Source of the DNA: Candidatus Beckwithbacteria bacterium | GTDB lineage: Bacteria; Patescibacteriota; Microgenomatia; UBA1400; CG1-02-47-37 | DNA length: 64,000 nucleotides | Assembly: GCA_026397255.1 (NCBI GenBank) | Contig: JAPLVF010000013.1 | Coordinates: 9,481 to 73,480, forward strand | Direction: 5' to 3' | Part shown: positions 4,659 to 18,856 of the stretch, one piece after another | Position numbering within the stretch: position 1 is the stretch's first letter | How the letters are laid out: each line of letters begins with the position of its first letter | Translations under genes and position numbers: made by a program | Notes under the pieces: generated by a model | Databases searched by the model: none | What the model was told of the DNA's origin: nothing | Seen by the model: only the letters and a program-made list of their open reading frames with translations

Positions 4659-5836
4659 GTTAAGCGGCGATAAAGAGCTAAATACTGGTTAATAATTTGT
4701 TGGCGGTTAAAGCGTGTTTGTAATAATTCTAAACTTTTTTGGGAAAATTGTGTTGTATTTTTCATGGCCTTAACTAATGCCTCTGCCACCTGGTCAGGTT
4801 TTTCCGGATCAACTAAATAACCATTGTCTTTCACCAGCTCCTGGTTACCACCGCGATTGGAGGCGACGATCGGTAAGCCGAAACTTAACGCTTCCAAGCC
4901 GGCGCGGGACAACGGTTCCGGCCAGCGGGAAAGAATCGCAAAGGCACTTGCCTGTTCATATAATTTCAAAGTTTGCTCATGGCTTAACTTGCCTAAATAT
5001 TTACAGTTCTTGGGAAACTCGGACTTAAAACTGGGGTTAATGTTACCGCAAAAAATAAATTGGTATTGAGGTAATTGTTCGGCGGCCTTAATTAAACAAT
5101 CCGTACCTTTGCCAAAAGACAACTTTCCTACTGATAGAATCATCCTTTTATTCTGGCTATAGCCCTGAGTTTGTCGGGGGCCATGGCCCTGAGCTTGTCG
5201 AAGGGGAGGCAAATTGTAAATCCAACTAACTTTTTTTACTCCATTATCCTGGTAGATTTTAGCTAACTGGGGCGAAACCGCAATTACTTGCTGGCAGCGG
5301 TTTAAAAACCACTTCAGTTTATACTGCCATAACTTGGCCAGAACCAGTTTCCACTTGGCCGTTCCGCCGTATCTTGACTGATATTCAGGAATCTCTTTAT
5401 TAATGTAATAGCCAAAACCACATTTTTTTTGCTGTTGGGTAAAGCATAAGGCTAAAGGGCATAAAAACTTAAAGTCGCGCACCGTCGCTACCACCGGCTT
5501 ATGGGTCAGCCAGCCAGCTAAAACTGCTCCGGGTAAAATATACTTACCGTGAACATGAATTAAGTCAATCTTTTTTTGCCTGATAGTTTTAATAATAAAA
5601 TAAGCTGAATAAAACCAGAAAAAAGGATTATTAAACCAAAGCGGCGATAAAATCCGGCCGGGTTTAATTTTTTTAGGAAAGGGGAATTTTAAATCGGGTG
5701 ATCGACCGCCTAAGTCAGGCGACAAAATAACCACTTTAATCCTGCGGCGTAGGCCTTCGGCTAAAGCGTGCAGGCTGTATTCAGCGCCGGAAACAGCATG
5801 CGGATAAGCGTATTCACTTAAAAAAATAATATTCAT
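4655..5836 (-). CDS. glycosyltransferase family 4
   Basis: RWPEPLSRAGLEALSFGLPIVAS GT4 C-terminal motif. ATGA overlap with the neighbouring gene. Confidence 0.8.
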   Translation of the reverse strand: MNIIFLSEYAYPHAVSGAEYSLHALAEGLRRRIKVVILSPDLGGRSPDLKFPFPKKIKPGRILSPLWFNNPFFWFYSAYFIIKTIRQKKIDLIHVHGKYILPGAVLAGWLTHKPVVATVRDFKFLCPLALCFTQQQKKCGFGYYINKEIPEYQSRYGGTAKWKLVLAKLWQYKLKWFLNRCQQVIAVSPQLAKIYQDNGVKKVSWIYNLPPLRQAQGHGPRQTQGYSQNKRMILSVGKLSFGKGTDCLIKAAEQLPQYQFIFCGNINPSFKSEFPKNCKYLGKLSHEQTLKLYEQASAFAILSRWPEPLSRAGLEALSFGLPIVASNRGGNQELVKDNGYLVDPEKPDQVAEALVKAMKNTTQFSQKSLELLQTRFNRQQIINQYLALYRRLT

Positions 5837-6585
5837 TTTAAAAGAGTGATAAAATTTTGTCCGCCTTTAATTCTTCCAGAACCATCAGAAACATTTTTAT
5901 AAGATGTGCCTGTGGCTAAGATTTTAAAGCCAAGTTTGCGGCAAATTTGTTTCATTTTGGAAACACGAATGACTAGGCTGGTTTGATTGACAGGAGCGGT
6001 AGTAATTTCTTTATAGCCTTTAAGGAAAAAGCGGATTTGATCCAGGGGATTTAATTTTGAAAATTTACCAAAATACAATTGAGCCACTCCGCCAACTTTA
6101 AGACAACGACGGGTTTCTTTAAGATAACTAGTTAAATTCTCATAATTTGGCAAGTGTTGAAGGACAATAAATGAATAGATAAAATCAAGACTGTCGGAAG
6201 CAACAGCAATTGAACAACCGGAGGTGGTAAGAAGTTTAAAATTTGTTTTACCCTGAGAGGTTAAAAATTTAATAACGGTGTTTTTTTCTTCATGAATGTC
6301 AATACCAACCACTTGTTTAAAATAACTACAGGCAGCATTAAGAATTCTCCCCCCGCCATAGCCTATTTCTAAAGCAATTTTTTCTTCGGGATTGTTAAGA
6401 TGTCTACAGACCGTTTGAGTGAGAATATGAAAAGTTAAATCCCAATAACCTCTCTTGATTGATTCATTAATATCTTTTGATTTATCAAACCACGCCTGAA
6501 ATGCAGCCATGCCTTTTTTTTTACTGGCTTTAATGGCTTGGCTGTATTTTTTTCTATGCTTAATTAAATCTGAAGACTGACTCAT
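5833..6585 (-). CDS. class I SAM-dependent methyltransferase
   Basis: LEIGYGGGRILN glycine-rich motif I and acidic motif II (FIVLQHL). Confidence 0.65.
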   Translation of the reverse strand: MSQSSDLIKHRKKYSQAIKASKKKGMAAFQAWFDKSKDINESIKRGYWDLTFHILTQTVCRHLNNPEEKIALEIGYGGGRILNAACSYFKQVVGIDIHEEKNTVIKFLTSQGKTNFKLLTTSGCSIAVASDSLDFIYSFIVLQHLPNYENLTSYLKETRRCLKVGGVAQLYFGKFSKLNPLDQIRFFLKGYKEITTAPVNQTSLVIRVSKMKQICRKLGFKILATGTSYKNVSDGSGRIKGGQNFITLLK

Positions 6586-7682
6586 AATTGATTAAATATC
6601 TTTAGCTGAGTTTTAATATTTTTCCTCCAAGTGAATTTATTAATAACATATTTTAAGGCTATTTTGCCCATTTTTTGCCGTAAATCCGGTGATTTAATTA
6701 ATTGAAGTATTTTTTCCACCCAATCATTAACATCCCCTGGTTTAGCTAAAAATCCTGTTTGGCCATCTTGAATAATCTCTCTTATTGAAGAATTATTATT
6801 GCCAATCACCGGGATACCACAGGCGCCGGCTTCAGTCAAAGTCATACCAAAACCTTCTTTTGAAGAAGGTAAAACCAGAATGTCAGCTAAACGGTAAAGT
6901 AATACTTTGTCAGATTCCGGAACAAAACCGGTAAATTTGACTCTATCAGTTAAACCTAAATTCTGAACCTGTAATTTTAATGATTTTTCCAATGGGCCTG
7001 TGCCGGCATAAATTAAAACTGTGTTTTTGTTGCCAATTTTGTCTAAAACTGTTAGTAAAAATGCCGGATTCTTCCGCTGTTTTAACCCACCGACAAATAA
7101 AATCACGAAATTACCTGCCAAATCCCAGTGATCAATAAGTTTTTGGGGTTTTGGACCAGGCTGGAATTCCTTGCCAACGCCATCATAAATTACAGAAATT
7201 TTTTCTTCCGGATAGTTTAATCTTGTAATAATTTCGTTTTTAGTAAAATGGCTAACGGCAATAAGGTGATCAAAATTCCTGATGACGATTTTATCAATTA
7301 AGTGATTAATACCCTCTTCCAGGTGATGATAGGTAGCGATAACCGGTACCTGAGGATAAAGTTTTTTAAAAACGCTGGCAGCCGGACCGACAAAATAAGG
7401 GTTATGGACGCGTAAAATATCAAATTTTTCTGCTTTATAAGTTTTAATTAAATACGGCAGGACAAAAGCAGAAAATACATGGGGCGGAAACATGGGTTTA
7501 ATCGGGGCATATGCTACAGTTAAGTTTTTGTGTTTCAGATATGGCCGGTTTTTGGGCAGTAAGCTGAAAACTTTAACCCCTGCCTGGCAAAGCCGGTTAA
7601 TTACTTCCCGGTCATAAACTTCCCCGCCGGAATTACTTTCCGGACTTAATCCCAGCTCTGGTGAACAAATTTTTAAACCCAT
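6582..7682 (-). CDS. glycosyltransferase family 4
   Basis: SSKEGFGMTLTEAGACGIPVIG GT4 motif. Confidence 0.8.
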   Translation of the reverse strand: MGLKICSPELGLSPESNSGGEVYDREVINRLCQAGVKVFSLLPKNRPYLKHKNLTVAYAPIKPMFPPHVFSAFVLPYLIKTYKAEKFDILRVHNPYFVGPAASVFKKLYPQVPVIATYHHLEEGINHLIDKIVIRNFDHLIAVSHFTKNEIITRLNYPEEKISVIYDGVGKEFQPGPKPQKLIDHWDLAGNFVILFVGGLKQRKNPAFLLTVLDKIGNKNTVLIYAGTGPLEKSLKLQVQNLGLTDRVKFTGFVPESDKVLLYRLADILVLPSSKEGFGMTLTEAGACGIPVIGNNNSSIREIIQDGQTGFLAKPGDVNDWVEKILQLIKSPDLRQKMGKIALKYVINKFTWRKNIKTQLKIFNQL

Positions 7683-7705
7683 TCCCTTATTTTACTGTAC
7701 TTCTC

Positions 7706-8356
7706 TTAATCTTTAAATGTTGCGCTGGCATTACCGTACAAAACCTGGCTCTTATAATTACTCCAAAGCCAGCGGCTAACATATCTTCTCCGGTACGAAG
7801 CAGTAGCGCTAGTCATTTTTCGGTAATTTTTCAGCATCGCTTGCCTGGACCGATCCTGCGCTTGCCGGGCGGTTTGCCCTTTTATTAGAGTAGTAACCAC
7901 TAAGTTTGACGGTACAAGAAATAATTTAGCCATTGAATCAGTCAATGGCCTAGTGCGTTTATCGGAATCATAGCCTAAAATAAATTTTTGGTTATAACCG
8001 ATAAAGGCTTTAGCTCCCTCTTTGATTAATACTTTACCCAAAGTAATCCCGGCATCACAGCTCCGGGCATAAATGATTGTTCCGGCCACTGCCGATTTTT
8101 TGCCGGTTTCCAAAAGCGGTTCAAAATCCTGACCGGTAATGGTTGTGCTATTGCCATGACCGTTCAAAAACAGAATCGCGGGCTGGTTAGATTTAAGACA
8201 ACTGTCAAAATTCTTTTTATTGGCCTTCTTTCCGGCCAAGTCATAAACAGCGAATAATTTTTGTTTGGCGGCTTTGATTACCAAAGTTGACCAATAATAC
8301 AAATAGTTAGTTGCCTCATCATGATTGGATCTTGTTACCAGAAGTGATTTACTCAT
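7706..8356 (-). CDS. hypothetical protein with a possible caspase-fold (clan CD-like) His/Cys dyad
   Basis: Ordered LFLNGHGNS ... IYARSCDAG segments resemble the His then Cys catalytic dyad order of clan CD peptidases. Weak, motif-level only. Confidence 0.4.
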   Translation of the reverse strand: MSKSLLVTRSNHDEATNYLYYWSTLVIKAAKQKLFAVYDLAGKKANKKNFDSCLKSNQPAILFLNGHGNSTTITGQDFEPLLETGKKSAVAGTIIYARSCDAGITLGKVLIKEGAKAFIGYNQKFILGYDSDKRTRPLTDSMAKLFLVPSNLVVTTLIKGQTARQAQDRSRQAMLKNYRKMTSATASYRRRYVSRWLWSNYKSQVLYGNASATFKD

Positions 8357-8561
8357 TTTGGTAAATTGCCCCGGATACCAAATCTTTCAAATATTCGAGC
8401 TCTACCCGCATTATTGTTTTTCCGATTTCATCTTCTTGTTCAATGTGTTTAATTACCGCCTGCTTATTCAGCCTATTTCCGCCAATTGCCATATTAAGAT
8501 TTTCCGGCATTAATTTAGCCCGAGCCAAGGCAATTTTTTTTATTTCATCTTTCGCTCTCAT
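8349..8561 (-). CDS. small hypothetical protein (70 aa)
   Basis: Second gene of the operon. Overlaps both neighbours by 4-8 nt (translational coupling). No Cys, no recognisable domain. Confidence 0.4.
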   Translation of the reverse strand: MRAKDEIKKIALARAKLMPENLNMAIGGNRLNKQAVIKHIEQEDEIGKTIMRVELEYLKDLVSGAIYQNE

Positions 8562-8743
8562 TTGAGAATTTTTAGTTTAGTTAATATTTCTAAAATCTCT
8601 TTTCCGACCGGCGTGTTTTGTTCGACTTCCAAGTGGGCGGCATTCCAGGTTAACGGTTCGTTAGCAATAACAACGACTATTTCGTTTCTGATAGACAAGG
8701 GCAAATTAGCATAGATTTTCAAAAAATCTGTTCTCTTATCCAT
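8558..8743 (-). CDS. small hypothetical protein (61 aa)
   Basis: First gene downstream of a TATAAT-containing promoter-like sequence. No recognisable domain. Confidence 0.4.
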   Translation of the reverse strand: MDKRTDFLKIYANLPLSIRNEIVVVIANEPLTWNAAHLEVEQNTPVGKEILEILTKLKILK

Positions 8744-8744
8744 G

Positions 8745-8764
8745 TAAAAAATTATAGCACAAAA
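8745..8764 (-). promoter_or_regulatory. putative promoter of the long leftward operon
   Basis: On the minus strand, GTGCTATAATTTTTTACATGG with a perfect TATAAT lies just upstream of the ATG at 8743. It sits immediately 3' of a copy of the island boundary motif. Confidence 0.3.
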
Positions 8765-8794
8765 TTTTACTTTACTTCCCGGCTCTTTTCACTT
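8765..8794 (-). repeat. boundary motif copy 1 (plus strand TTTTACTTTACTTCCCGGCTCTTTTCACTT)
   Basis: Identical 30-mer recurs at 10662-10691 and in shortened form at 12894-12918. Each copy sits at the 3' end of a minus-strand gene. Confidence 0.7.
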
Positions 8795-9448
8795 ACTTAC
8801 AGTCACGGTTAAATTCTGGCCGTCAAAGTCAAAACTGAAAGTAATCGGCTGGTCCAGATTGTTAACAATATACAGATTTCCTAAGGGGTTGGGGCTTAAA
8901 ATTCCCACACCGTATTCTTTGGGGACTTCATTAATCTGGGCAAAATTATGGTCAGACGGGCTATGGGCAGTTAAACCGGCATCTTCAGCCGCCCAATACA
9001 TGAGCGAAGCTAAGTGGCAGACGCCGTCGCCGATCAGATGGCCGTCAGACTTAAACCCTTCTGCGCCGTTAAAATGGGCATTAGTGGTTTTAACTACATT
9101 GGCCGAATAATCGGGCAAAGTCTTCTCATGGAAAGCGAATTTTTCACCCGGTTTTAAAGTAAACTGGGTTTTAAACGGCTGGTTAATCCTGTCCCAATCG
9201 ATCTGACTTTTGTCAGTCACCTGATTATCCAGATAGTATAGGGTTAAGAGAATATTATCCTTAAACACTCCGCTCACAAACTCATTATCATATCTGTTTT
9301 CCAGGTTAATACTATGGGATGATAAAACCGCATTGGACGCCCCCAAAATTTGCGGTTGGGCCAAGGCTAAATGAAGCGACAGAATCAGTTCATAAAGCAT
9401 ATTTAAGGGGATATTATACCATATTATAGGATATTTGCCAAACCCCAC
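8789..9448 (-). CDS. VanW-like domain protein
   Basis: GDGVCHLASLMYWAA resembles the GGVCQ[VS]S[TS]LYNA core remembered for VanW/YoaR domains. Confidence 0.5.
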   Translation of the reverse strand: MGFGKYPIIWYNIPLNMLYELILSLHLALAQPQILGASNAVLSSHSINLENRYDNEFVSGVFKDNILLTLYYLDNQVTDKSQIDWDRINQPFKTQFTLKPGEKFAFHEKTLPDYSANVVKTTNAHFNGAEGFKSDGHLIGDGVCHLASLMYWAAEDAGLTAHSPSDHNFAQINEVPKEYGVGILSPNPLGNLYIVNNLDQPITFSFDFDGQNLTVTVSK

Positions 9449-9468
9449 AGAATGGTTTAATCTAAAAT

Positions 9469-10080
9469 ATGACCGGAAAACTAATTGGGTTGTTTTTATT
9501 GGTACTGGGGCTAACTATAGGAGGAATATTTGCTTTCAGGCCAAAAGAAGTTAAACCAAATTTTAGTCTAAAAGTCGAAAACGGGGTGATGGGAGTTTTC
9601 CACGGCCAAGAAGTGATGCCGCCGGCAATTGACTTGGCTGCGGTTGAGCCGGAGACTCAGGTTCTGGGCGACGCCGACCCAAATGCAGAAAAACATATTT
9701 ACATTGATTTAAGTACCCAAACCCTAACCGCCTATCAGGGAGACAGTTTGTTTATGCAGGTTTTGGTTTCCACCGGAAAATGGGGCCGGACGCCGACCGG
9801 TGAATTTACGATCTGGTCCAAATTCCGGGCGACCCGCATGTCCGGCGGCTCAGGGAGCGACTATTACGACCTACCCAATGTCCCCTACGTGATGTTTTTT
9901 TCCGGCTCCGGGGTTGCCGCCGCCAAGGGCTTTTCCATGCATGGTACTTATTGGCATAATAATTTTGGCCACCCAATGAGCCATGGTTGTGTCAATATGA
10001 GGACCGTTGACGCCCAAAAACTATTTAATTGGGCCGGTATTAATGAAAAAATAACGATCTATGGTCAAGCCCCAGGCTAA
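9469..10080 (+). CDS. L,D-transpeptidase (YkuD domain) with N-terminal membrane anchor
   Basis: Catalytic segment HGTYWHNNFGHPMSHGCVNM with the invariant His...SHGC(V/I) Cys motif of L,D-transpeptidases. Hydrophobic N-terminus. Confidence 0.85.
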   Translation: MTGKLIGLFLLVLGLTIGGIFAFRPKEVKPNFSLKVENGVMGVFHGQEVMPPAIDLAAVEPETQVLGDADPNAEKHIYIDLSTQTLTAYQGDSLFMQVLVSTGKWGRTPTGEFTIWSKFRATRMSGGSGSDYYDLPNVPYVMFFSGSGVAAAKGFSMHGTYWHNNFGHPMSHGCVNMRTVDAQKLFNWAGINEKITIYGQAPG

Positions 10081-10660
10081 ATCATCACTGTTAATCATTA
10101 TTTGCGTGGCCGTTATCGGCGGGCTCATGTTTTGGCGCCTTAATCCCCAATCAATCCCAATTAAGGTTATTACCGAGCCGAGTCCCGGCCCGGTGCTAAA
10201 TTTATCTGCCAACTCATCAGACGGGAAAATTTACCTGGAGATGAAGCAGAAAAAGGAAGCGAATACAATAACCTGGACCATGACAGCTAAGCAAGGTGAG
10301 GAAACGGCAAAAACAATCTGGTGGCAGACTTTGCCGGCTGATACCACTATCTCTATTCCGCTCAACTCTGTCTCCCCGGATAATAAATATATGTTTTTAA
10401 AGCAAACCGGGCCCGATAAAACCCGCTATATAGTGTTAACCACCAGCGGCAAGCCGCTGGGTTCAGGATCGCAAACAGTGGAATTTGCCGAGTTGTTCGA
10501 GCTAAAGCACCCGGAATATATTATTACCGAGGTGACAGGCTGGGGCGGAACCAACTTAATTGTGTTTAATACTGACAAAATCGCGGGCGTAATTGGCCCA
10601 TCTTTTTGGTTTGACTTGTCCGGCAAATCGTTTATTCAGCTCTCCCACCGCTTTGATTAG
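10061..10660 (+). CDS. hypothetical membrane-anchored exported protein
   Basis: N-terminal TM helix. Overlaps the L,D-transpeptidase 3' end by 20 nt and is likely co-transcribed. Confidence 0.5.
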   Translation: MVKPQAKSSLLIIICVAVIGGLMFWRLNPQSIPIKVITEPSPGPVLNLSANSSDGKIYLEMKQKKEANTITWTMTAKQGEETAKTIWWQTLPADTTISIPLNSVSPDNKYMFLKQTGPDKTRYIVLTTSGKPLGSGSQTVEFAELFELKHPEYIITEVTGWGGTNLIVFNTDKIAGVIGPSFWFDLSGKSFIQLSHRFD

Positions 10661-10661
10661 T

Positions 10662-10691
10662 TTTTACTTTACTTCCCGGCTCTTTTCACTT
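10662..10691 (-). repeat. boundary motif copy 2
   Basis: Exact 30-mer TTTTACTTTACTTCCCGGCTCTTTTCACTT in the 38 bp gap between convergent genes. Confidence 0.7.
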
Positions 10692-10698
10692 GTTCTCT

Positions 10699-11307
10699 TT
10701 AATTTTCAAATATCATTTTCTTGTAAATTTTCCGGGTAGTCTCGACATCTTTTTCGCAGTACTCACAGATTTCTTTAATCCGGCCAGCTTGATAAGCCTT
10801 AGCCACGTCTTTACCTTCGATTTCCCCTTCTTTAGGGCTGGGAATGCCTAAAACCTTAGACAGCGCGTGCAAAGAAATTTTACTTTGCAGATTCCATTTG
10901 CTCCACTCGCACATAATGTCAAAGATGGGAAAGTTACGGTAGCGGGCAAAGTTTAAGTCTTTGCTGGGCTTAACGCCTAAAATAACCGATCTTTGGTAAA
11001 TAAACCTTAAATCAAAGTCCATCAGATTAAAGCCAATAAATAAATCCGCATTTTTGGCAATAGCCCAAAAATCCGTCAGCATTTTCTTTTCGTCTCCGGA
11101 AAGAGTTTTCACCGCTTCGTCATTAACGGCATAAGAAATGCAGGCGATGCGGCCGTAAGACCCGTCCAGTCCGGTGCTTTCGACAAACTCTTCAAAAGTT
11201 CTTGGGGTATATTTACTTCTTCTTTTCCTCTTATAAATATCTTTGAGGATCTCCCTCATTTCTTCCCCTGACGGCAAAGTTTCAATATCTAAGTAGAGTT
11301 TAGTCAT
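10699..11307 (-). CDS. DnaQ-like 3'-5' exonuclease, PolB-exonuclease-domain-related
   Basis: Exo I YLDIET, Exo II-like GFNLMDFDL and Exo III-like YCEKDVETT motifs in a ~200 aa protein. Confidence 0.6.
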   Translation of the reverse strand: MTKLYLDIETLPSGEEMREILKDIYKRKRRSKYTPRTFEEFVESTGLDGSYGRIACISYAVNDEAVKTLSGDEKKMLTDFWAIAKNADLFIGFNLMDFDLRFIYQRSVILGVKPSKDLNFARYRNFPIFDIMCEWSKWNLQSKISLHALSKVLGIPSPKEGEIEGKDVAKAYQAGRIKEICEYCEKDVETTRKIYKKMIFEN

Positions 11308-11374
11308 ATTTAAATTTTACTACTAATTATTACCTTTAGTTGATCTTTAAACCACTATTCTATATATTCAAGTC

Positions 11375-11986
11375 ATGAAATATGATGAGATGTTTAATAA
11401 AGTAAGGAATTTGGAATTTGATACAGAAATGTCTGTTTGTAAATCTCATGATACGGAACTTTATTTGCTTAGACCATCTGTTCTCTCCAAGAGATTTTCC
11501 ACATATAACGTAAAAAAGAATTTTCAAATATGGCTTAGAACTGTTGCAAGAAATTTTAGACCTAATCATCTTAGGGTTTTTATTGATTTAAACTTAAGGG
11601 TAAGAAGCAGACCAGATTTAAAGGAAAAAATGTTAGTTGCCTTTGATGACATTTTCTACGGTAAAGATCCTAACGAGGTAATTCAGGGTTTGAAAAAAGA
11701 AAAATTTGAACATTTTTTGAACCCAATTGAAATAATTGCTAATTTGTCACAACTTTTCATAATTGAGCAGGCTTACTCATACAACAAAGAAAGCAATTTT
11801 GACCCTCCTACGCTTTTTTACCAAGGATGGATAAGGCAAGTTTTAGATGATATTAAAGAAATTGATAATTTGTGTATGAGTATTTCTAGGGGTCAACCTG
11901 CAGCAGCAAAATATACATCGAAAGAAAATAAAAAAAGTAATAAATTCCAGGCTAAATTAAGGCCCTTGTGGTATATTGAGGCATAG
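11375..11986 (+). CDS. hypothetical protein, candidate restriction endonuclease partner
   Basis: AT-rich ORF convergent with, and overlapping by 35 bp, the DPPY DNA methyltransferase. Possible PD-(D/E)xK-like FDD...E.K segment. No direct homology recognised. Confidence 0.35.
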   Translation: MKYDEMFNKVRNLEFDTEMSVCKSHDTELYLLRPSVLSKRFSTYNVKKNFQIWLRTVARNFRPNHLRVFIDLNLRVRSRPDLKEKMLVAFDDIFYGKDPNEVIQGLKKEKFEHFLNPIEIIANLSQLFIIEQAYSYNKESNFDPPTLFYQGWIRQVLDDIKEIDNLCMSISRGQPAAAKYTSKENKKSNKFQAKLRPLWYIEA

Positions 11987-12812
11987 AATAGTTTTCTTTC
12001 ACTAATCTAAGCTGTTTTTTCTCAAGATTGGATTTTAGCTCTTCAAATCTTTGTATTGATAAATCTAAATACTGTTTTTCAGTGTCAATTCCAATAAATT
12101 TTCTTCCATATAAATAAGCGGCTAACCCCGTAGTGGAACTGCCGGTAAAAGGATCAAGGATTAAATCACCCTTTCTAGTACTGGCTAAAACTATTCTTTT
12201 AAGCAAGTCTATAGGTTTTTGAGTCGGATGTTTTCCAAATTTTTTCTCAATCGGTTTAGGCGTATTAATTGACCAAACTGATCTCATTTGCAAGTTCGCT
12301 TTTTTTAATTGGTCTTCCGGCCAATTACCATCTTTCATCAATTTATAGTTAAAGATGTGTTTACCTTCTTTGTCTTTTCTGGCCCAAATTAGGGTTTCGT
12401 GGCTAGCGGTAAAAAAACGGCAGCTTAAATTTGGAGAGGCATTCGGCTTAAACCAAGCAATATCGTTTAATATGTGAAATTTATTAATTTCTAAGGCCAG
12501 ACCGCATTGATAAATGGAGTGATAAGTTCCACTTACCCAAATAGTTCCATTGGGTTTTAAAATCTTTTTACATAGCTTTAACCATTCTCTATGAAATTCA
12601 AAATTTTTCTTTGTTCCATTACTTAAATCCCAGTCTCCTTTTTTTACACTAACCATTTTCCCGTTTTGGCAGGTGAAACTGCCGCTGGAAAGAAAATAAG
12701 GCGGGTCGGCAAAAATCATATCCACGGAATTCTCCGGAAACTGACTCAAGAGTTTTAAAGAATTACCCAAGTAAAGCTCAAAGTTTAGTTTTTCGTAGTA
12801 AGGTTTTAACAT
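11952..12812 (-). CDS. DNA methyltransferase, N6-adenine/N4-cytosine, beta-class
   Basis: Motif IV IFADPPYFL precedes motif I ILDPFTGSSTTGLAA, the order typical of beta-class amino-MTases (N4/N6 methylase domain). Confidence 0.85.
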   Translation of the reverse strand: MLKPYYEKLNFELYLGNSLKLLSQFPENSVDMIFADPPYFLSSGSFTCQNGKMVSVKKGDWDLSNGTKKNFEFHREWLKLCKKILKPNGTIWVSGTYHSIYQCGLALEINKFHILNDIAWFKPNASPNLSCRFFTASHETLIWARKDKEGKHIFNYKLMKDGNWPEDQLKKANLQMRSVWSINTPKPIEKKFGKHPTQKPIDLLKRIVLASTRKGDLILDPFTGSSTTGLAAYLYGRKFIGIDTEKQYLDLSIQRFEELKSNLEKKQLRLVKENYSMPQYTTRALI

Positions 12813-12893
12813 ATCTTTATGGGATCGGGTTTTATTTGTATATCTTCATTAAGAACCCTTTGGCAAATTTTGTCAACAACTACGTACTTATTA

Positions 12894-12918
12894 TTTTACT
12901 TCCCTATTCTTTTCACTT
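12894..12918 (-). repeat. boundary motif copy 3 (degenerate: TTTTACTTCCCTATTCTTTTCACTT)
   Basis: Shares TTTTACTTCCC and TCTTTTCACTT with copies 1 and 2. Lies between the ImmA stop and the MTase start. Confidence 0.6.
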
Positions 12919-12926
12919 ATGATGGC

Positions 12927-13421
12927 TTAATTCCAATTAGCTAATTTATCGTATAGCTTGGTTTCTTTTAATCTCCACATCATCATATCTTTACTTACCC
13001 AGTAATTTTTTGCTAATTCACTCCAAGATAAAGAGATAAGCCGTTCCGCTTTTATCAATTGTAAAGGCACTAATAATTCGGCGGCAAATTTATTAGCGGC
13101 CACCTCATCGGGATTTTTATTTGAAAAGTCTATTGTTCTGAAACCAGAATTATGCCCCATTAAAATATGCCCCAATTCATGAGCGATCGTATACCTTATC
13201 CTTGTTTCAGGTTTTTTATTATTATATATAATCTGAGTCGTTCCAACACTAAAACCATCCTCATCACCTAAATCTTTGCCTTGAACGGAAATTTTAAAGT
13301 CTACTTGTTTTAAAATTAAGTTTAGTCGAATTGGGGGAATTTTTTGAACACTTTGCTTAATAAGATTTCTGGCAAGTTTTAAAGCAAATCCATTGTCATT
13401 TGGTTCATCTTGAAAATTCAT
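12927..13421 (-). CDS. ImmA/IrrE-family zinc metallopeptidase
   Basis: HELGHILMGH HEXXH motif in a ~160 aa protein immediately downstream of, and overlapping, an XRE HTH gene (COG2856-type arrangement). Confidence 0.8.
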   Translation of the reverse strand: MNFQDEPNDNGFALKLARNLIKQSVQKIPPIRLNLILKQVDFKISVQGKDLGDEDGFSVGTTQIIYNNKKPETRIRYTIAHELGHILMGHNSGFRTIDFSNKNPDEVAANKFAAELLVPLQLIKAERLISLSWSELAKNYWVSKDMMMWRLKETKLYDKLANWN

Positions 13422-13737
13422 CTTTTGAAAGCCTTATGGCTTCATTAATGGCTTTATTAAATTTTGGGTTTTTAAGGGCCTTTTTCGAAGCACGGAAAGA
13501 AATATGAATTGATGGAACGCTAAAACCTTCAATTAATTCTTTCAGACTAACCTGTAATTCTCTAGCAATCTTGGATAACGTTCCAAGATTATTGATTTCT
13601 CTCTCGCCACTTTCATAAAGAGCGATTAATGAGGTAGAAAGTCCAAGTTTATTCCCCAACTCCTGTTGTGACGCCCCGACAGCTTCCCTTGCTTCTTTTA
13701 TGTTTTTCCCAATTTTTTTGAAATTTAACTCCATCAT
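13405..13737 (-). CDS. HTH XRE-family transcriptional regulator
   Basis: IKEAREAVGASQQELGNKLGLSTSLIALYESGER helix-turn-helix segment. Confidence 0.85.
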   Translation of the reverse strand: MMELNFKKIGKNIKEAREAVGASQQELGNKLGLSTSLIALYESGEREINNLGTLSKIARELQVSLKELIEGFSVPSIHISFRASKKALKNPKFNKAINEAIRLSKDEFSR

Positions 13738-13759
13738 GCTAGAGTTTAAACCAAAGTTG

Positions 13760-13815
13760 AAAATTTGTCAAATCTGCTTGTTGACTTTGTAAATATTTTT
13801 GTTACAATACAGACA
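13760..13815. promoter_or_regulatory. divergent promoter/operator region between the XRE gene and the payload genes
   Basis: TTGACT -35, 16 nt spacer, TACAAT -10 on the plus strand. The -35 is overlapped by an inverted repeat TTGTCAA-N9-TTGAC. Confidence 0.4.
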
Positions 13816-13841
13816 TAGTTACTAATTATTTTAATTTAATT

Positions 13842-14207
13842 ATGGGTAAAAGTTCAGAATCTAGACGTAAAAATGAACCGGTCGTTAAATCTCGGGGGTC
13901 AACGGGAAGTTATGCCGCCAGTGGTGGTAATAATTCTATTAAACAAGACTGTCTGTTTAGTCTAAAATTTGAGCAAAAAGTCCCTACTCTCATGACTGTA
14001 ATAGTTGGTCAATACGCTGTTTTGTTGCCGGATAATTCCAATCTTTACCTAAACGTGATTATTGACGGTCAAAGTGCCGGAAGATATTCAGGTAAAATGA
14101 GCAAAAAAGTAATTAAGTGTATTAGCGAGGGCTTTGTTTACGAAGGTAAGGTCATCTCTATTAAGGATAGCTCCCTGGCAGTAATCGAAGTTAAGGGCCG
14201 TGGATGA
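13842..14207 (+). CDS. hypothetical protein (121 aa)
   Basis: First gene divergent from XRE/ImmA. Stop overlaps the next start (ATGGATGA). Confidence 0.55.
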   Translation: MGKSSESRRKNEPVVKSRGSTGSYAASGGNNSIKQDCLFSLKFEQKVPTLMTVIVGQYAVLLPDNSNLYLNVIIDGQSAGRYSGKMSKKVIKCISEGFVYEGKVISIKDSSLAVIEVKGRG

Positions 14208-15186
14208 AAAAATTACAGATCAGTTAGAATTTTGGGGTCTCAATGGTTTATCAACAGCGCGCATATCCGGTTGTCCAGTCGTTGATTATTTAGATGATTG
14301 CGACAGCGCTTGTTATCCAACAAAACCTTCAAAGTACGAAGCGCTGACGTGTGGCAGCAAAAAAGGGGCTCAATTTTTGGGAGACGCAAGGGGGGCGACA
14401 TTAAACAACATTAAAGCGTTGAGGGTAAAAATTCCAAAACTGCCAATTTTCATCCCGGAATTACAACATGGTAGCAAGTACTTAGTTAATAATACTAAAT
14501 TAGATTGGGTGGCAGTCAAAATTGACGAAGTTGTGTCAAAACATGATTTAAAAGTTGCCGCTGATATTCGTAAAAGAATAGGAATCGATTCAAAAACAAA
14601 AGTACTATTACTTGGTTACGGATCCGACCGGTTTTTAGAGAATTTATGGACAAACAGGAAGAAAATCTTTCCTCAAATCGCCAGCTTGAAAGCGGATCTT
14701 TACACGGCCATTGACTATTCAGTTTTTCTCGTTCACCCACACCTCGAGAGAGTTCTTAACGTTAAAAGAAGTTTGGTGACTTTTGATATTTTACAAAGGC
14801 TAGGAGTTCCGGTCGTGCCGCATATTTATTGGAGCGGGGAAAAAGACATGAAAAGATGGGCGTTCTGGCTGAACCAAAATTCTGGAGTAAATTTAGTGTC
14901 CATGTATTTAGGTTGGATTAGAAAAAGCGAATGGGTGAAAATATTTTCAGAGCTTAAGTGTCTAAATAAATCGCTTGAGAGAAAAATAAATTACTTGATA
15001 AGCGGGCCGGGCAATTTAACAGAAATAAAACCGTTAAAAGAAATTCTCGGAAACGTAATTTTAACAGACGCAGAATGTGCCTTGAATGCGGCACATCATA
15101 AATTAAGTCAAAATAAATTAAAAGTTACTTACTATCCATTCAAGGAAAATTTAGATTACCATACAGAATTAGTAAAAGCCGCATAA
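14200..15186 (+). CDS. hypothetical protein (328 aa)
   Basis: Translationally coupled to the 121 aa ORF. No motif I can assign with confidence. Confidence 0.55.
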   Translation: MDEKITDQLEFWGLNGLSTARISGCPVVDYLDDCDSACYPTKPSKYEALTCGSKKGAQFLGDARGATLNNIKALRVKIPKLPIFIPELQHGSKYLVNNTKLDWVAVKIDEVVSKHDLKVAADIRKRIGIDSKTKVLLLGYGSDRFLENLWTNRKKIFPQIASLKADLYTAIDYSVFLVHPHLERVLNVKRSLVTFDILQRLGVPVVPHIYWSGEKDMKRWAFWLNQNSGVNLVSMYLGWIRKSEWVKIFSELKCLNKSLERKINYLISGPGNLTEIKPLKEILGNVILTDAECALNAAHHKLSQNKLKVTYYPFKENLDYHTELVKAA

Positions 15187-15201
15187 GGGGTGAGCAACCT
15201 G

Positions 15202-15267
15202 TGATAAGATAAATTTATGAAAAAAGTGATGGTGACGGGGAGCGGAGGGTTCATTGGAAGACAGCTG
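15202..15267 (+). pseudogene. duplicated epimerase promoter/5' end, copy A (MKKVMVTGSGGFIGRQL then stop)
   Basis: TGATAAGATAAATTTATGAAAAAAGTGATGGTGACGGGGAG... nearly identical to the true epimerase start at 17987-18045. Reading frame terminates after 17 codons. Confidence 0.7.
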
Positions 15268-15280
15268 TAGGACGGAAGCA

Positions 15281-15735
15281 CTATTTATAACTAGCAGGAC
15301 AGTTTTTTGCCTTGGTAAAACCGGCTTTACGGGCTTCGGCTTCGGTGCAGAACCAACTATCGCCGTTGTGCAATTGAACATCAACCTTGTTGTAGTAACC
15401 GCAGCCAGGAAAATAATAGGTCATTTCGCCGCTGTTCTGACTGATATCAGCAGAATTTAGTTTAATGTTGCCTTTTATTTGACAATCCGAATTTTCCGGG
15501 TTAAACCTTTGAGTGCAGAGTTCGCTAAAGACCCCCAGTTTGGCCGCCCTGGCTTTTTTGGTGGCCGGCAATTAAAGCCGCCTTATTCCCGCCATATTGA
15601 CTATGAACTTCCGACCAACCAGATGCCAGCATGTTTTCATCGACAGAACCGTCTTCAGTATAAACAAGAGAGATTAATCGGCTAGAATCGCGATAAACGA
15701 CCTTGAGATAAATGTCTTTATTTGGATTTTTTGGC
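15281..15735 (-). pseudogene. thermonuclease (SNase-like) remnant with Cys-rich C-terminal domain, frameshifted and N-terminally truncated
   Basis: Upstream frame encodes LISLVYTEDGSVDENMLASGWSEV, like the SNase C-terminal half. The 96 aa ORF in another frame encodes CQIKGNI...YYFPGCGYY...WFCTEAEARKAGF. A T6 run lies at the frame junction. Confidence 0.5.
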
Positions 15736-15777
15736 TCTTGCGGCAGGCATTACTTAATTGTAACTCAAGTGCAGAAA

Positions 15778-15808
15778 TCAAGTTGTGTTAAGATAAGGAG
15801 TGTTGATG
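15778..15808 (+). repeat. partial copy A' of the epimerase upstream sequence
   Basis: ATCAAGTTGTGTTAAGATAAGGAGTGTTGATGAA versus ATCAGTTGTGTGATAAGATAAGTTTATGAA at 17971-18000. Confidence 0.5.
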
Positions 15809-15812
15809 AAGG

Positions 15813-16277
15813 TTATTTTCTCTTACTTAATGACTTAACGATTAAATTTTGAGCCACAGCCGGATCTATGTGATCGGCTTTAATGAAAAGAATTTGGCGT
15901 TCAGGAAGATATTTCTCAGGCAAAAACCGCCAAATCATAGCAGGATCAATTTTAAACTCTGCTTTGGTATCAATAGGGATAATCGAATCGCCTTGCTGCG
16001 AAAGCCCGAGATCGCCTAATATAGTGTGAAATCCTAAACTCAGGTCATTGATTAATGAACGCCAGTTTTCCCGCTCTTGAAACGTAACCGGACTAACCAG
16101 AAAATAATATCCGGGGCGGGCTTTTATTTTCTGAGCGTCTTCAGGTTTACTCAGATCACAAAAACTAATTTGTTTTTCGCCAATTGCACCAATTTCCATA
16201 ATTGAAAGAACGGTGGTTACTCGCGAGGTTTTTCTGCCTGGATGGAATAATTTATCCCAAGTTTCTTTAAAAGACAT
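15813..16277 (-). CDS. hypothetical protein (154 aa)
   Basis: Second gene of a two-gene unit bounded by epimerase-5' repeat copies. No recognisable domain. Confidence 0.55.
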   Translation of the reverse strand: MSFKETWDKLFHPGRKTSRVTTVLSIMEIGAIGEKQISFCDLSKPEDAQKIKARPGYYFLVSPVTFQERENWRSLINDLSLGFHTILGDLGLSQQGDSIIPIDTKAEFKIDPAMIWRFLPEKYLPERQILFIKADHIDPAVAQNLIVKSLSKRK

Positions 16278-16298
16278 AGATTTCGGGCAGACGGGGAA

Positions 16299-17090
16299 TT
16301 ATACCAGGTTGGGGAAGAGAAAGCCTTTGATATCTAAAAAGTCAATTTTTTTATCCTTGACAAAAATCCTGTCTTTACCACTGATATCAATTTGCCTGGG
16401 AACATAAATTAAGCCGTTAATTTCCCTTAAATCATCCGGTAATACTTGTTTCTTTCGGGAAAAAGCTGAAAGTTTATCGGTAAAATCCTTCAGCGGACTC
16501 ATCCTTTGTCGATGTAAAGCATAACTCGATTCTTTTGGTTTAACAAACAACTTTAAGATGCTTAATTTTGTTTGCTTATTTTGCTTCTCTACTAATGCCT
16601 CTAAGCGAGCTTGAGTATCATCCTTTTCCAACATTGGATTGGCGCCGCTTAAAATTAATAAACCTTCGTTATCCCCAATCACTGTTTTAACGCCGGTAAA
16701 AAATTTCCTTAATTTGAGAACGGCTTGTTTCATTGAATGAAATCTGCCTTCTCTAAATTCAATCGGCTGGTGAAGGCCAACAGCATTACCATGGTTATCT
16801 TTGGCCAACATCAGGGCGCAAAAACTGGCACCATGTATAAAAATTACGGCCGGATCTGTTTCAGTGGAAATAATATTCTCAGAATCTTTGATTTTTTCAA
16901 ATCCGGGCGTGGTTTCATAGACAGTCGGATCTGCCGAGCGAACCTTAAAGCCACTTTTAGGCAAAGATTGCTGTAAATTTTCCGGAGAGGCGTAAGCAAT
17001 TGTGGTATCAAATTTTTTTAGGACATCAAGTATAGGAGAAGGTTCAAGCGTTTGGGGTAAACCCCGGTTAATTTCAAAAAAATCCTGCAT
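16299..17090 (-). CDS. hypothetical protein (263 aa)
   Basis: First gene of the two-gene unit. No recognisable domain. Confidence 0.55.
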   Translation of the reverse strand: MQDFFEINRGLPQTLEPSPILDVLKKFDTTIAYASPENLQQSLPKSGFKVRSADPTVYETTPGFEKIKDSENIISTETDPAVIFIHGASFCALMLAKDNHGNAVGLHQPIEFREGRFHSMKQAVLKLRKFFTGVKTVIGDNEGLLILSGANPMLEKDDTQARLEALVEKQNKQTKLSILKLFVKPKESSYALHRQRMSPLKDFTDKLSAFSRKKQVLPDDLREINGLIYVPRQIDISGKDRIFVKDKKIDFLDIKGFLFPNLV

Positions 17091-17100
17091 ATTTATTATA

Positions 17101-17157
17101 TGATAAGATAAGTTTATGAAAAAAGCGATGGTGACGGGGAGCTCGGGGTTTATCTAA
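17101..17157 (+). pseudogene. duplicated epimerase promoter/5' end, copy B (MKKAMVTGSSGFI then stop)
   Basis: 53 nt almost identical to 17981-18033, then divergence and a TAA stop. Confidence 0.7.
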
Positions 17158-17243
17158 AGACACCTGATAGAAAGACTGAAAAAGGAAAAGTTTAAGAAAT
17201 TTGTCAATAGCCGCTTGACAACGTGCTATAATGAAATTACATA

Positions 17244-17311
17244 GACCCTGTTTCTGAATTGTCACCGTAAGGTGCGCGTTCTCAACTAACGTTGAGATAG
17301 GAACCAGGGTC
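17244..17311. other. structured RNA-like element (long closing stem with two internal hairpins, one with a GNRA loop)
   Basis: GACCCTGTTTCT pairs with AGGAACCAGGGTC, enclosing CACC-GTAA-GGTG and TCTCAAC-TAAC-GTTGAGA hairpins. Lies 3 nt beyond the DUF3800 stop on the minus strand. Confidence 0.3.
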
Positions 17312-17314
17312 GCT

Positions 17315-17938
17315 TTATTTAAACGGCCAAATATCTTCAATTCTTCTTGACCTTTTAAGCATAGTTAAATAATCAGAATCTTTTTTTGTAAAGTCAGAGA
17401 ACACTGCCCCAGCTACCATATCAGCCAGTTGAATCAGCGTGTTTTGTCTTGAATCCACAAACTTTAAATCTTTAAAGATTTTACTGTTCTTATTGTCTAA
17501 ACGCCTGGATAAATAAACTCTTAACTGATTCCTTAGGGTTCTCTCTCCTCTTTTATCAACTTTCAATTTTGCGTTTTTTATTGATCCGCCGCTTTGTTTC
17601 AAAACCTGCATGATTACATAGTTATAAAAATCTTCTTTATTGCTTCTTAATCTTTGGCTGCGAATTAATGCTTTGTTAACCATAATGGCTCTAACCCTAA
17701 ACTTAAATGATCTGATAGCGTTGAAAAAGGCTTTGCGAAATTTTCTGTTGGTTTTATTGAACTTAAATTCGTATTTATCTTGTAATTTCAGTTTTCTCCT
17801 TAGTTCTTTAATTGCCACCGAGGTCTTTTCTGCTTCCAGGTTGTCATTGAAAATAACTAAGGCCAACACAAAAATATCGCTTGAGCCTTTTTGGAGCTTA
17901 AAACCTGGATCTCCGGATTCGTCAATAAAAACTATCAT
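17315..17938 (-). CDS. DUF3800 family protein
   Basis: N-terminal MIVFIDESGDPGF matches the conserved iY/F-IDESG start remembered for DUF3800 proteins. Confidence 0.65.
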   Translation of the reverse strand: MIVFIDESGDPGFKLQKGSSDIFVLALVIFNDNLEAEKTSVAIKELRRKLKLQDKYEFKFNKTNRKFRKAFFNAIRSFKFRVRAIMVNKALIRSQRLRSNKEDFYNYVIMQVLKQSGGSIKNAKLKVDKRGERTLRNQLRVYLSRRLDNKNSKIFKDLKFVDSRQNTLIQLADMVAGAVFSDFTKKDSDYLTMLKRSRRIEDIWPFK

Positions 17939-17995
17939 TAAATTATTTTATCACCTAAGGCCTGAAAAATATCAGTTGTGTGATAAGATAAGTTT

Positions 17996-18856
17996 ATGAA
18001 AAAAGCGATGGTGACGGGGAGTTCGGGGTTTATTGGGAGAAAACTGATCAAGAGATTACAAAAAGACGGGGTGGAGGTAGTGGGGTTTTCTAGAAAAGAG
18101 GGGAAAAATATCACCAAAAAGGAAGATTTTGCGGGGTTGGGAAAGGTGGACACGGTGTTTCATCTGGCGGCAGTGTCGGGGTATAAGGACTGTGCGGAAA
18201 ACACCGGTTTGGCGTATGAGGTGAATGTGGGCGGAACAACTAATGTTTTAGAATATTGCCGGAAAAGCAAGGCAAAATTAATTTTTCCCAGCACGTATGT
18301 TTATGACCAGCCTTATTCAGAGGTGAAAACGGAAACGAGTGCGACGAAGCCGACGACGCATTATTCTTTCACGAAATTCTTAGGCGAAGAACTCTGTCGT
18401 TTTTACACGCGGGTATTTAAAGTGAACAGTTTGATTTTACGAACAGCCAATGTGTTCGGATTTGGCCAAGAAGACAAGTATTTGGTGCCGATTATCTTTA
18501 ATAATATTCTGGCAGGCCGAGAGTTTGAGCTGACCAAGCCGGAAATTGAACGGAGTTTTATTTATATTGCTGATTTGGTGGAGGCTTATGTCCGTCTGGC
18601 AGAAGCGAATAGCGAAAGCGGAGAAACATATAATATCGGACCGGAGAAGCCAACAACTTTGCAGGAATTGGTGCAGGCGATGGAGAAGGTAACCGGAAAG
18701 AAAGCCCGGGTAAAATATTCCGGCCAAGAGCGGCCAAATGAAGTGAATTTAAACCGGGTGGATACAGGTAAGATGAAAGCAAAACTTAACTGGCAGCCGG
18801 AAATCAGTTTAGAGCAGGGATTAAAACAATATCTGGAAAAACTTCATGAAGTTTAA
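17996..18856 (+). CDS. NAD-dependent epimerase/dehydratase (extended SDR)
   Basis: GSSGFIGRKL Rossmann motif and YxxxK (YSFTK). This is the intact copy of the repeated 5' end. Confidence 0.85.
   Translation: MKKAMVTGSSGFIGRKLIKRLQKDGVEVVGFSRKEGKNITKKEDFAGLGKVDTVFHLAAVSGYKDCAENTGLAYEVNVGGTTNVLEYCRKSKAKLIFPSTYVYDQPYSEVKTETSATKPTTHYSFTKFLGEELCRFYTRVFKVNSLILRTANVFGFGQEDKYLVPIIFNNILAGREFELTKPEIERSFIYIADLVEAYVRLAEANSESGETYNIGPEKPTTLQELVQAMEKVTGKKARVKYSGQERPNEVNLNRVDTGKMKAKLNWQPEISLEQGLKQYLEKLHEV

Follow-up and report, generated by a model that had tools for sequence, protein, structure and literature searches.

The 64,000-nucleotide (nt) window analysed here comes from a contig of a Candidatus Beckwithbacteria bacterium (JAPLVF010000013.1) and contains a 30-bp motif, TTTTACTTTACTTCCCGGCTCTTTTCACTT, that recurs within a run of small gene blocks. 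Exact copies lie on the + strand at positions 8765-8794 (copy 1) and 10662-10691 (copy 2), and a degenerate copy lies in register at 12889-12918 (copy 3). Family scans covered the genes found between positions 5833 and 18856 of the window; the remaining open reading frames (ORFs) were listed. The flanks of the scanned region (5833-7682 and 17996-18856) contain glycosyltransferase, methyltransferase and epimerase genes. Copy 1 is preceded by a minus-strand operon coding for proteins of 216, 70 and 61 amino acids (aa), the ATG of the 61-aa gene being at 8743. Copies 1 and 2 enclose block A (8795-10661), which comprises a VanW-like gene (-), a YkuD L,D-transpeptidase gene (+) and a gene coding for a conserved 199-aa protein (+). 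Between copies 2 and 3 lies block B (10692-12888), made up of a PolB-exo-like 3'-5' exonuclease gene (10699-11307, -), a 203-aa gene (11375-11986, +) and a type II N6/N4 DNA methyltransferase gene (11952-12812, -). Copy 3 is followed by an ImmA gene (-), an XRE helix-turn-helix gene (13405-13737, -) and then the 121-aa and DUF4417 genes (+), beyond which more small blocks extend as far as the epimerase gene at 17996. An earlier note on this DNA, made by reading the letters, had called the three genes nearest the motif VanW-like, exonuclease and ImmA; Pfam analyses confirmed these assignments as VanW, PolB-exo-like exonuclease and Peptidase_M78/ImmA.

The same note described the three copies as sharing one orientation and lying at the 3' ends of these minus-strand genes, both of which proved correct. 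Copy 1 is located between the VanW-like gene, whose TGA stop (8789-8791) it contains, and the extended -10 box belonging to the 61-aa operon. Copy 2 fills the 38-nt gap between two convergent stops: in the minus-strand reading, AAGTGAAAAGAGCCGGGAAGTAAAGTAAAA, it begins 7 nt past the TAA of the exonuclease gene (10699-10701), and the TAG of the 199-aa gene (10658-10660) lies on its other side. Copy 3 begins, in the same reading, 8 nt past the TAA of the ImmA gene (12927-12929), and the methyltransferase gene starts some 80 nt downstream of it, with its ATG at 12812.

The 30-mer is a real, non-random repeat. It was not found once in 100 dinucleotide shuffles, and the degenerate 24-mer TTTACTTCCCNNNTCTTTTCACTT, which is matched by the last 24 nt of copy 3 (12895-12918), occurs three times in the window compared to a shuffle average of 0.03. 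Since the bases bordering the two exact copies are unlike (a/a around one and t/g around the other), the exact repeat is precisely 30 nt long, and alignment of the flanks of the copies showed that similarity is gone beyond approximately 31 nt. Copy 3 is identical to copies 1 and 2 at 25 of 30 positions, differing by a central change from GCC to ATA and by two changes near one end. All three copies fall inside 4.2 kb, and the other 60 kb of the window contain none. A Logan assembly contig (L001, 9455 nt, corresponding to window positions 7676-17130) that was assembled independently is base-identical over all three copies, thereby ruling out an artefact of a single assembly.

We compared the locus with related genomes. 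Homologues of the 216-aa protein identified eight related Beckwithbacteria contigs (L023-L030, 80% protein identity) in which the epimerase gene is the divergent immediate neighbour of a 61-aa/67-aa/214-aa/glycosyltransferase operon, only 24 nt away, while the 61-aa operon and the epimerase gene are 9.25 kb apart in the window. Two closer relatives (L031 and L032, 85-91% identity for the 216-aa protein) have a different two-gene insert, DUF5674 and a 101-aa gene, at the same spot. Positions 8760-17995, between the 61-aa operon and the epimerase ATG at 17996, are thus an inserted island at a recurrent insertion hotspot. The empty site of L023-L030 lacks the 30-mer. On the operon side, the window and these contigs have GTGCTATAAT in common, from which 6 nt in the window and 8 nt in L023 lead to the ATG of the 61-aa gene; homology stops at window position 8763, 2 nt short of copy 1. 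The extended -10 box TGCTATAAT (8750-8758, -), 6 nt before the 61-aa ATG, is part of what the relatives share and marks the old promoter, which predates the island.

The blocks between the copies form independent units of synteny. In the relatives L034 and L036, the VanW/YkuD/199-aa trio is kept together as one block, with approximately 81% nucleotide identity over window positions 8804-10660; there it has other neighbours and no motif. Homology in the exonuclease gene resumes at 10703. The exonuclease gene, which is widely conserved in the Candidate Phyla Radiation (CPR), is followed in the close relatives L003-L012 (87-92% protein identity) by RhuM or SNase genes and then by xseA-xseB, and is preceded there by variable defence-type genes. 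The trio, the exonuclease gene and the 61-aa operon therefore occupy separate loci with different neighbours in relatives, which makes the island a mosaic whose blocks are not linked in other genomes. The window stretches that find no homology, 8764-8803 and 10661-10702, hold copies 1 and 2 and almost nothing more, which places copy 1 exactly at the joint of the 61-aa operon with the trio, and copy 2 exactly at that of the trio with the exonuclease block. Copy 3 divides the methyltransferase and exonuclease block from the ImmA/XRE pair. The earlier suggestion that the copies delimit modules is borne out, as they sit in gaps of 42-60 nt between synteny blocks found at separate loci in relatives.

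One further stretch of the island matches the exonuclease locus of relatives. Positions 15299-15370, a 72-nt segment of an ORF at 15281-15571 (-), are 76% identical to segments located between SNase genes downstream of the exonuclease gene in relatives (L011 11153-11224 and L012 6267-6338); part of the relatives' exonuclease locus is therefore displaced into the island of the window.

Searches beyond the window returned one more copy. Contig L011, whose exonuclease is 90% identical to that of the window, carries a single copy, CAGTGAAAAGAATAGGGAAGTAAAGTAGAA, on the strand of the exonuclease gene and ending 19 nt before its ATG. This copy separates an upstream region whose gene content varies among related contigs from the conserved exonuclease-to-xseAB block. 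Its closest counterpart in the window is copy 3, with which it shares 26 of 30 positions and the central ATA. Two variants thus circulate in the group, and copy 3 is not just a decayed form of copies 1 and 2; by this comparison, both variants are old alleles rather than products of decay in place. We considered whether a decayed exonuclease 3' end lies upstream of the L011 copy, so that exonuclease and motif would form a unit; once the motif was excluded, the alignment was no better than for shuffles.

A 21-base degenerate pattern had no match in the genome, metagenome and viral contigs of public collections. A looser 19-base pattern matched six metagenome and four genome sequences, of which only L018, 99.98% identical to L011, was real; the others showed no extension past the pattern. 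All nine matches of a 17-base pattern to viral contigs were chance matches. A nhmmer profile built from the four copies and run over 412 kb (the window and related DNA) found no further copies, and half-motif searches of the window yielded nothing above chance-level matches, such as GAAGTACAGTAAAA (13/14) upstream of the glycosyltransferase gene at 7703. The motif is therefore, on present sequences, rare and lineage-restricted, and it lies at a block edge in four of four cases. The earlier note would have abandoned its idea had the motif been confined to this genome with no positional association; confinement to the lineage is nearly complete, but the extra copy in one relative does lie at a block edge.

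Upstream of the same glycosyltransferase gene, GAAGTACAGTAAAATAAGGGA followed by ATG (7680-7703, -) resembles the 3' half of the L011 motif and its ribosome-binding site at about 18 of 21 positions (manual count). The A-rich 3' half of the motif may simply resemble local translation-start regions.

Repeat-flanked insertion is also seen with other sequences of this group. Three direct repeats on the + strand (D1a, 15190-15287; D1b, 17089-17186; D1c, 17969-18066) consist of the epimerase promoter TGTGATAAGATAAGTTT, the ATG and about 50-70 nt of the coding start. Only D1c, at the right-hand island edge, is the genuine promoter and start and heads an intact gene (ATG 17996), while D1a, at another block joint, and D1b are pseudo-copies with an in-frame stop. 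The D1 copies bound two further blocks, one with 96-aa, 154-aa and 263-aa genes and the other with DUF3800 and its RNA, and their arrangement looks like repeated insertion into the 5' end of the epimerase gene with the start restored every time. In relatives, the 5' end of the exonuclease gene occurs a second time, as a duplicate of 75-92 bp placed upstream of inserted genes beside the intact exonuclease gene (L003 1523-1597, L004 2813-2890, L009 852-932, L012 2753-2844, and likewise in L005-L008). The insert sets include HTH-SocA_Panacea with a 125-aa gene, and Bro-N with a trypsin-like gene, and no integrase is present at these loci. As targets are duplicated at both the epimerase and the exonuclease loci, repeat-flanked insertion is the usual local signature, and the 30-mer array fits it.

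We propose that the 30-mer is an att-like direct repeat left by, or used in, the successive recombination events that built the island, a reading to which we give about an even chance of being right; crossovers at the motif and the identity of their catalyst are its inferred parts. The island would have been built by successive insertions between two genes that are adjacent in relatives. On the side facing the 61-aa operon, every block joint bears one 30-mer in the same orientation, as would be expected if incoming DNA bearing the site recombined with the copy already in place, leaving the new block flanked by two copies; repeated events would then produce an array in which sites and blocks alternate in tandem (site-block-site-block-site). 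Copies 1 and 2, identical to each other, would flank the product of the most recent event, the 1867-bp trio block; until then, the exonuclease gene would have been joined to the 61-aa promoter through one motif. The DNA between copies 2 and 3 measures about 2.2 kb. The events may have been catalysed by a recombinase whose gene lies elsewhere in the genome, or may have been short-homology recombination, either RecA-dependent or RecA-independent, and the same repeats would permit the later loss of a block. Clustering of the copies within 4.2 kb is expected of a local event and not of a genome-wide signal.

Several observations weigh against this proposal. The earlier note had asked whether the motif co-occurs with a specific recombinase, and it does not: no IntI, recombinase, integrase or transposase family was found in the scanned genes, and no recombinase, integrase or transposase appears in the precomputed Pfam tables of the related contigs fetched, L011 included. 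Most core sites of tyrosine and serine recombinases have dyad symmetry, and the motif has none. Inserted DNA is flanked by direct repeats in the same orientation, as in att-type insertions, and an empty state was seen for the whole island (L023-L030) but not for single blocks: neither an empty site for an individual block, such as exonuclease-motif-61-aa operon, nor a circular form of any block was found. The blocks hold conserved core genes (those for the exonuclease, YkuD and the 199-aa protein) rather than typical cargo, which makes genome rearrangement as likely as the insertion of mobile cassettes. Finally, some association with block edges is expected anyway, since there are four independent copies only and the intergenic gaps measure 38-114 nt.

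Of the three functions that the earlier note had offered for the motif, the scar of a recombination site agrees best with these observations. The other two, a transcript 3'-end element and a fixed site for binding or regulation, both fit poorly because the position of the motif relative to promoters and stops becomes inconsistent once the L011 copy is included.

Were the motif a cis-regulatory DNA site, it would be a promoter, an UP element or an operator, for instance for the adjacent XRE/ImmA pair, that was copied along with the transcription units it controls. We consider this unlikely. Copy 1 does lie just upstream of the promoter of the 61-aa operon, copy 3 upstream of the methyltransferase gene and the L011 copy upstream of the exonuclease gene. 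Moreover, GTGAAA-17-TAAAAT within copy 1 scores 9/12 in a consensus scan, direct AAGT(R)AAA sub-repeats, noted by eye, could bind a protein in tandem, and an XRE/ImmA pair resembling CapH/CapP adjoins copy 3. The placement of the copies is nevertheless inconsistent for such a site. The extended -10 box that follows copy 1 after 6 nt is conserved in relatives that have no motif, and copy 3 precedes a TTGACA box. In L011 the motif is found after a promoter-like site and ahead of the ribosome-binding site, and copy 2, enclosed by convergent stop codons, has no gene to drive. Copies 2 and 3 have lost either the final T or the register of the -10-like hexamer. Neither the other 60 kb of the window nor 350 kb of related DNA contains a further copy, and the operators of XRE and CapH proteins are normally palindromic, which the motif is not.

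It is equally improbable, in our judgement, that the motif is a neutral local duplication without any role, an intergenic scrap copied in unrelated rearrangements or kept by chance. The very low copy number, the narrow distribution and the lack of an associated enzyme would all suit such an origin. Two perfectly identical copies with sharp edges flush with gene ends would not, nor would a second variant that is common to another lineage and stands at another block edge; a scrap with no role is not expected at four of four block joints.

A third alternative is a special case of the junction repeat that would name the origin of the site: it would be what is left of an integration-target gene, namely the final 6-8 codons with the stop. 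Examined by eye, the differences between copies look silent in two minus-strand frames, SEK[S/N]REVK* in frame 1 (CGG/AGG, AAG/AAA, TAA/TAG) and VKR[A/I]GK* in frame 2, where the three central changes all fall in one codon. In addition, frame 1 at copy 3 continues the ImmA frame beyond its TAA, and frame 2 at copy 2 continues the exonuclease frame. We nonetheless regard this origin as doubtful, more so than either of the two preceding explanations: neither peptide was found at the end of a gene, whether in the window, at 45 loci or in 120 exonuclease homologues, the frame in which the upstream gene is matched is not the same from copy to copy, and with six substitutions in total the pattern may be due to chance.

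Least likely of all, and in our view very improbable, is a transcript 3'-end element of minus-strand genes, acting as an unconventional terminator or as a site of RNA stability or processing, since, although all window copies begin 0-8 nt after a minus-strand stop and the motif is T-rich on the + strand, there is no stem-loop on either strand and no terminator-scan match at any copy, the nearest upstream gene in L011 ends 138 nt before the motif with a GC-rich hairpin of its own, the L011 motif abuts the ribosome-binding site of the next gene, and dozens of other minus-strand genes in the window have no motif.

The make-up of the motif excludes several further classes of element. In keeping with its earlier description as neither palindromic nor a terminator hairpin, neither strand folds into a hairpin, the minimum free energies of 0 to -0.6 kcal/mol being matched by those of shuffles, and we found no flanking inverted repeats that involve the motif and no dyad symmetry within it; its halves, AAGTGAAAAGA and AAGTAAAGTAA, are direct and not inverted repeats. 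Rfam returned no match at any copy, even with E-values up to 10, and no tRNA or tmRNA gene was found as an integration target. An intrinsic terminator is ruled out by the absence of a stem and of terminator-scan matches, an integron attC site by the lack of folding and of inverted repeats and by the length of only 30 nt, and a Xer/dif-type site by the direct orientation of the halves. Duplication of a transposon target site is equally rejected: such duplications usually measure 2-15 bp and flank an element with terminal inverted repeats and a transposase, whereas this repeat measures 30 nt and the ends of the 8795-10661 block carry no inverted repeats, and no transposase was found in the scanned genes. 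As a sigma-70 promoter, copy 1 alone scores, and copy 2 faces a convergent gene end. Although the AAGTG at the start of the motif resembles the Haemophilus uptake sequence, three clustered copies in 64 kb are unlike the genome-wide signal of a DNA uptake sequence. Small + strand peptides overlapping the motif were also discarded, as the reading frames differ among copies.

Among known systems, the att-type repeats (attL/attR) of islands and prophages, including their tandem arrays, are similar in that short repeats in the same orientation flank blocks, and here three sites part successive blocks. As with att-type islands, the locus in relatives is an insertion hotspot with differing contents. 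The blocks of the window differ in having no integrase in or beside them and in including core genes, and their site differs in lacking dyad symmetry. The microcin H47 island of E. coli, which has no recombinase, excises by RecA-independent recombination between flanking direct repeats, and deletion between 34-bp FRT repeats without Flp or RecA has been shown in E. coli (PMC5426353). The att sites of the H47 island are long and imperfect, with four patches of homology, and its excision has been demonstrated experimentally (PMC5426353). The array described here resembles it in its flanking direct repeats and in that no recombinase was found in the element, so that recombination would need the host or short homology; unlike that of H47, the repeat of the window measures 30 nt and is known from sequence.

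In integron arrays, IntI and attI stand at the head, and CALINs are clusters of attC sites without an integrase. The attC sites are imperfect palindromes of 57-141 bp (R''/L'', L'/R') that fold into one-strand hairpins. Our array shares with integron arrays and CALINs gene blocks that are each bounded by a repeat in the same orientation abutting a gene 3' end. It differs from integron arrays in that the motif does not fold, no IntI was found in the scanned genes, there is no attI, and the blocks comprise several genes on both strands. Xer/dif elements (IMEX) and the pdif modules of Acinetobacter plasmids are recombinase-less modules on whose flanking sites of about 28 bp a host enzyme acts, and tandem arrays of them occur. 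Sites of the dif type measure about 28 bp and have two inverted 11-bp arms around a 6-8 bp centre. The likeness lies in recombinase-less modules flanked by short sites, and the difference in these inverted arms as opposed to the direct halves of the motif. The motif is best filed as a short junction repeat of a genomic island, unusual for its non-palindromic make-up of direct half-sites.

Genomic islands predicted with IslandViewer4, some of them with restriction-modification systems, have been reported in these bacteria (PMC12455944); a term search of the text of that report found no mention of integrases, recombinases or repeat-based island boundaries. If the proposed origin of the 30-mer is correct, the window would offer a base-resolved example of a streamlined CPR genome assembling a variable island with no recombinase gene found nearby. 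The motif and the neighbouring repeats of 5' gene fragments mark exact joints that could be used to seek gain or loss of blocks in population data, a modest practical value. By itself the motif opens no larger question, since it occurs in a single lineage and has no enzyme linked to it. A broader proposal, which we hold to be a long shot, is that Beckwithbacteria possess an integrase-less system, trans-acting or driven by short homology, that shuffles multi-gene blocks, core genes included, between hotspots via a non-palindromic site of about 30 bp with direct half-sites, alongside a second mode that duplicates promoters and 5' gene fragments. Such a system, if it exists, would use a new type of site and would imply that ultra-small bacteria build defence and accessory islands by a novel recombination mechanism.

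Other features of the locus were noted in passing. The TGCTATAAT box stands 6 nt (window 8743-8758, -) to 8 nt (L023 6664-6683) before the 61-aa ATG, and a ribosome-binding site is lacking; in the window the end of its -10 hexamer is 7 nt before the A of that ATG. This layout suggests leaderless transcription of the 61-aa gene, driven by an extended -10 promoter. A similar arrangement is seen at the epimerase gene, with TGTGATAAGATAAGTTT followed by ATG.

In block B, the 203-aa gene overlaps the 3' end of the convergent methyltransferase gene and had no family match in Pfam, PHROGs, NCBIfam or PADLOC; it may encode the restriction endonuclease that partners the methyltransferase. In PADLOC, the XRE/ImmA pair (12927-13737, -) matched CapH/CapP, which regulate defence operons (capP, E = 2.6e-20; capH, E = 1.6e-08); the pair is divergent from the 121-aa and DUF4417 gene pair (13842-15186, +), which may be the unit that it regulates and possibly a defence system. 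Toward the right-hand end of the island, Rfam matched a DUF3800-IX RNA at 17244-17315 (+) with 64 bits against a gathering score of 36.8. This RNA abuts the DUF3800 protein gene (17315-17938, -), whose product matches the PADLOC candidate defence family PDC-M04A.

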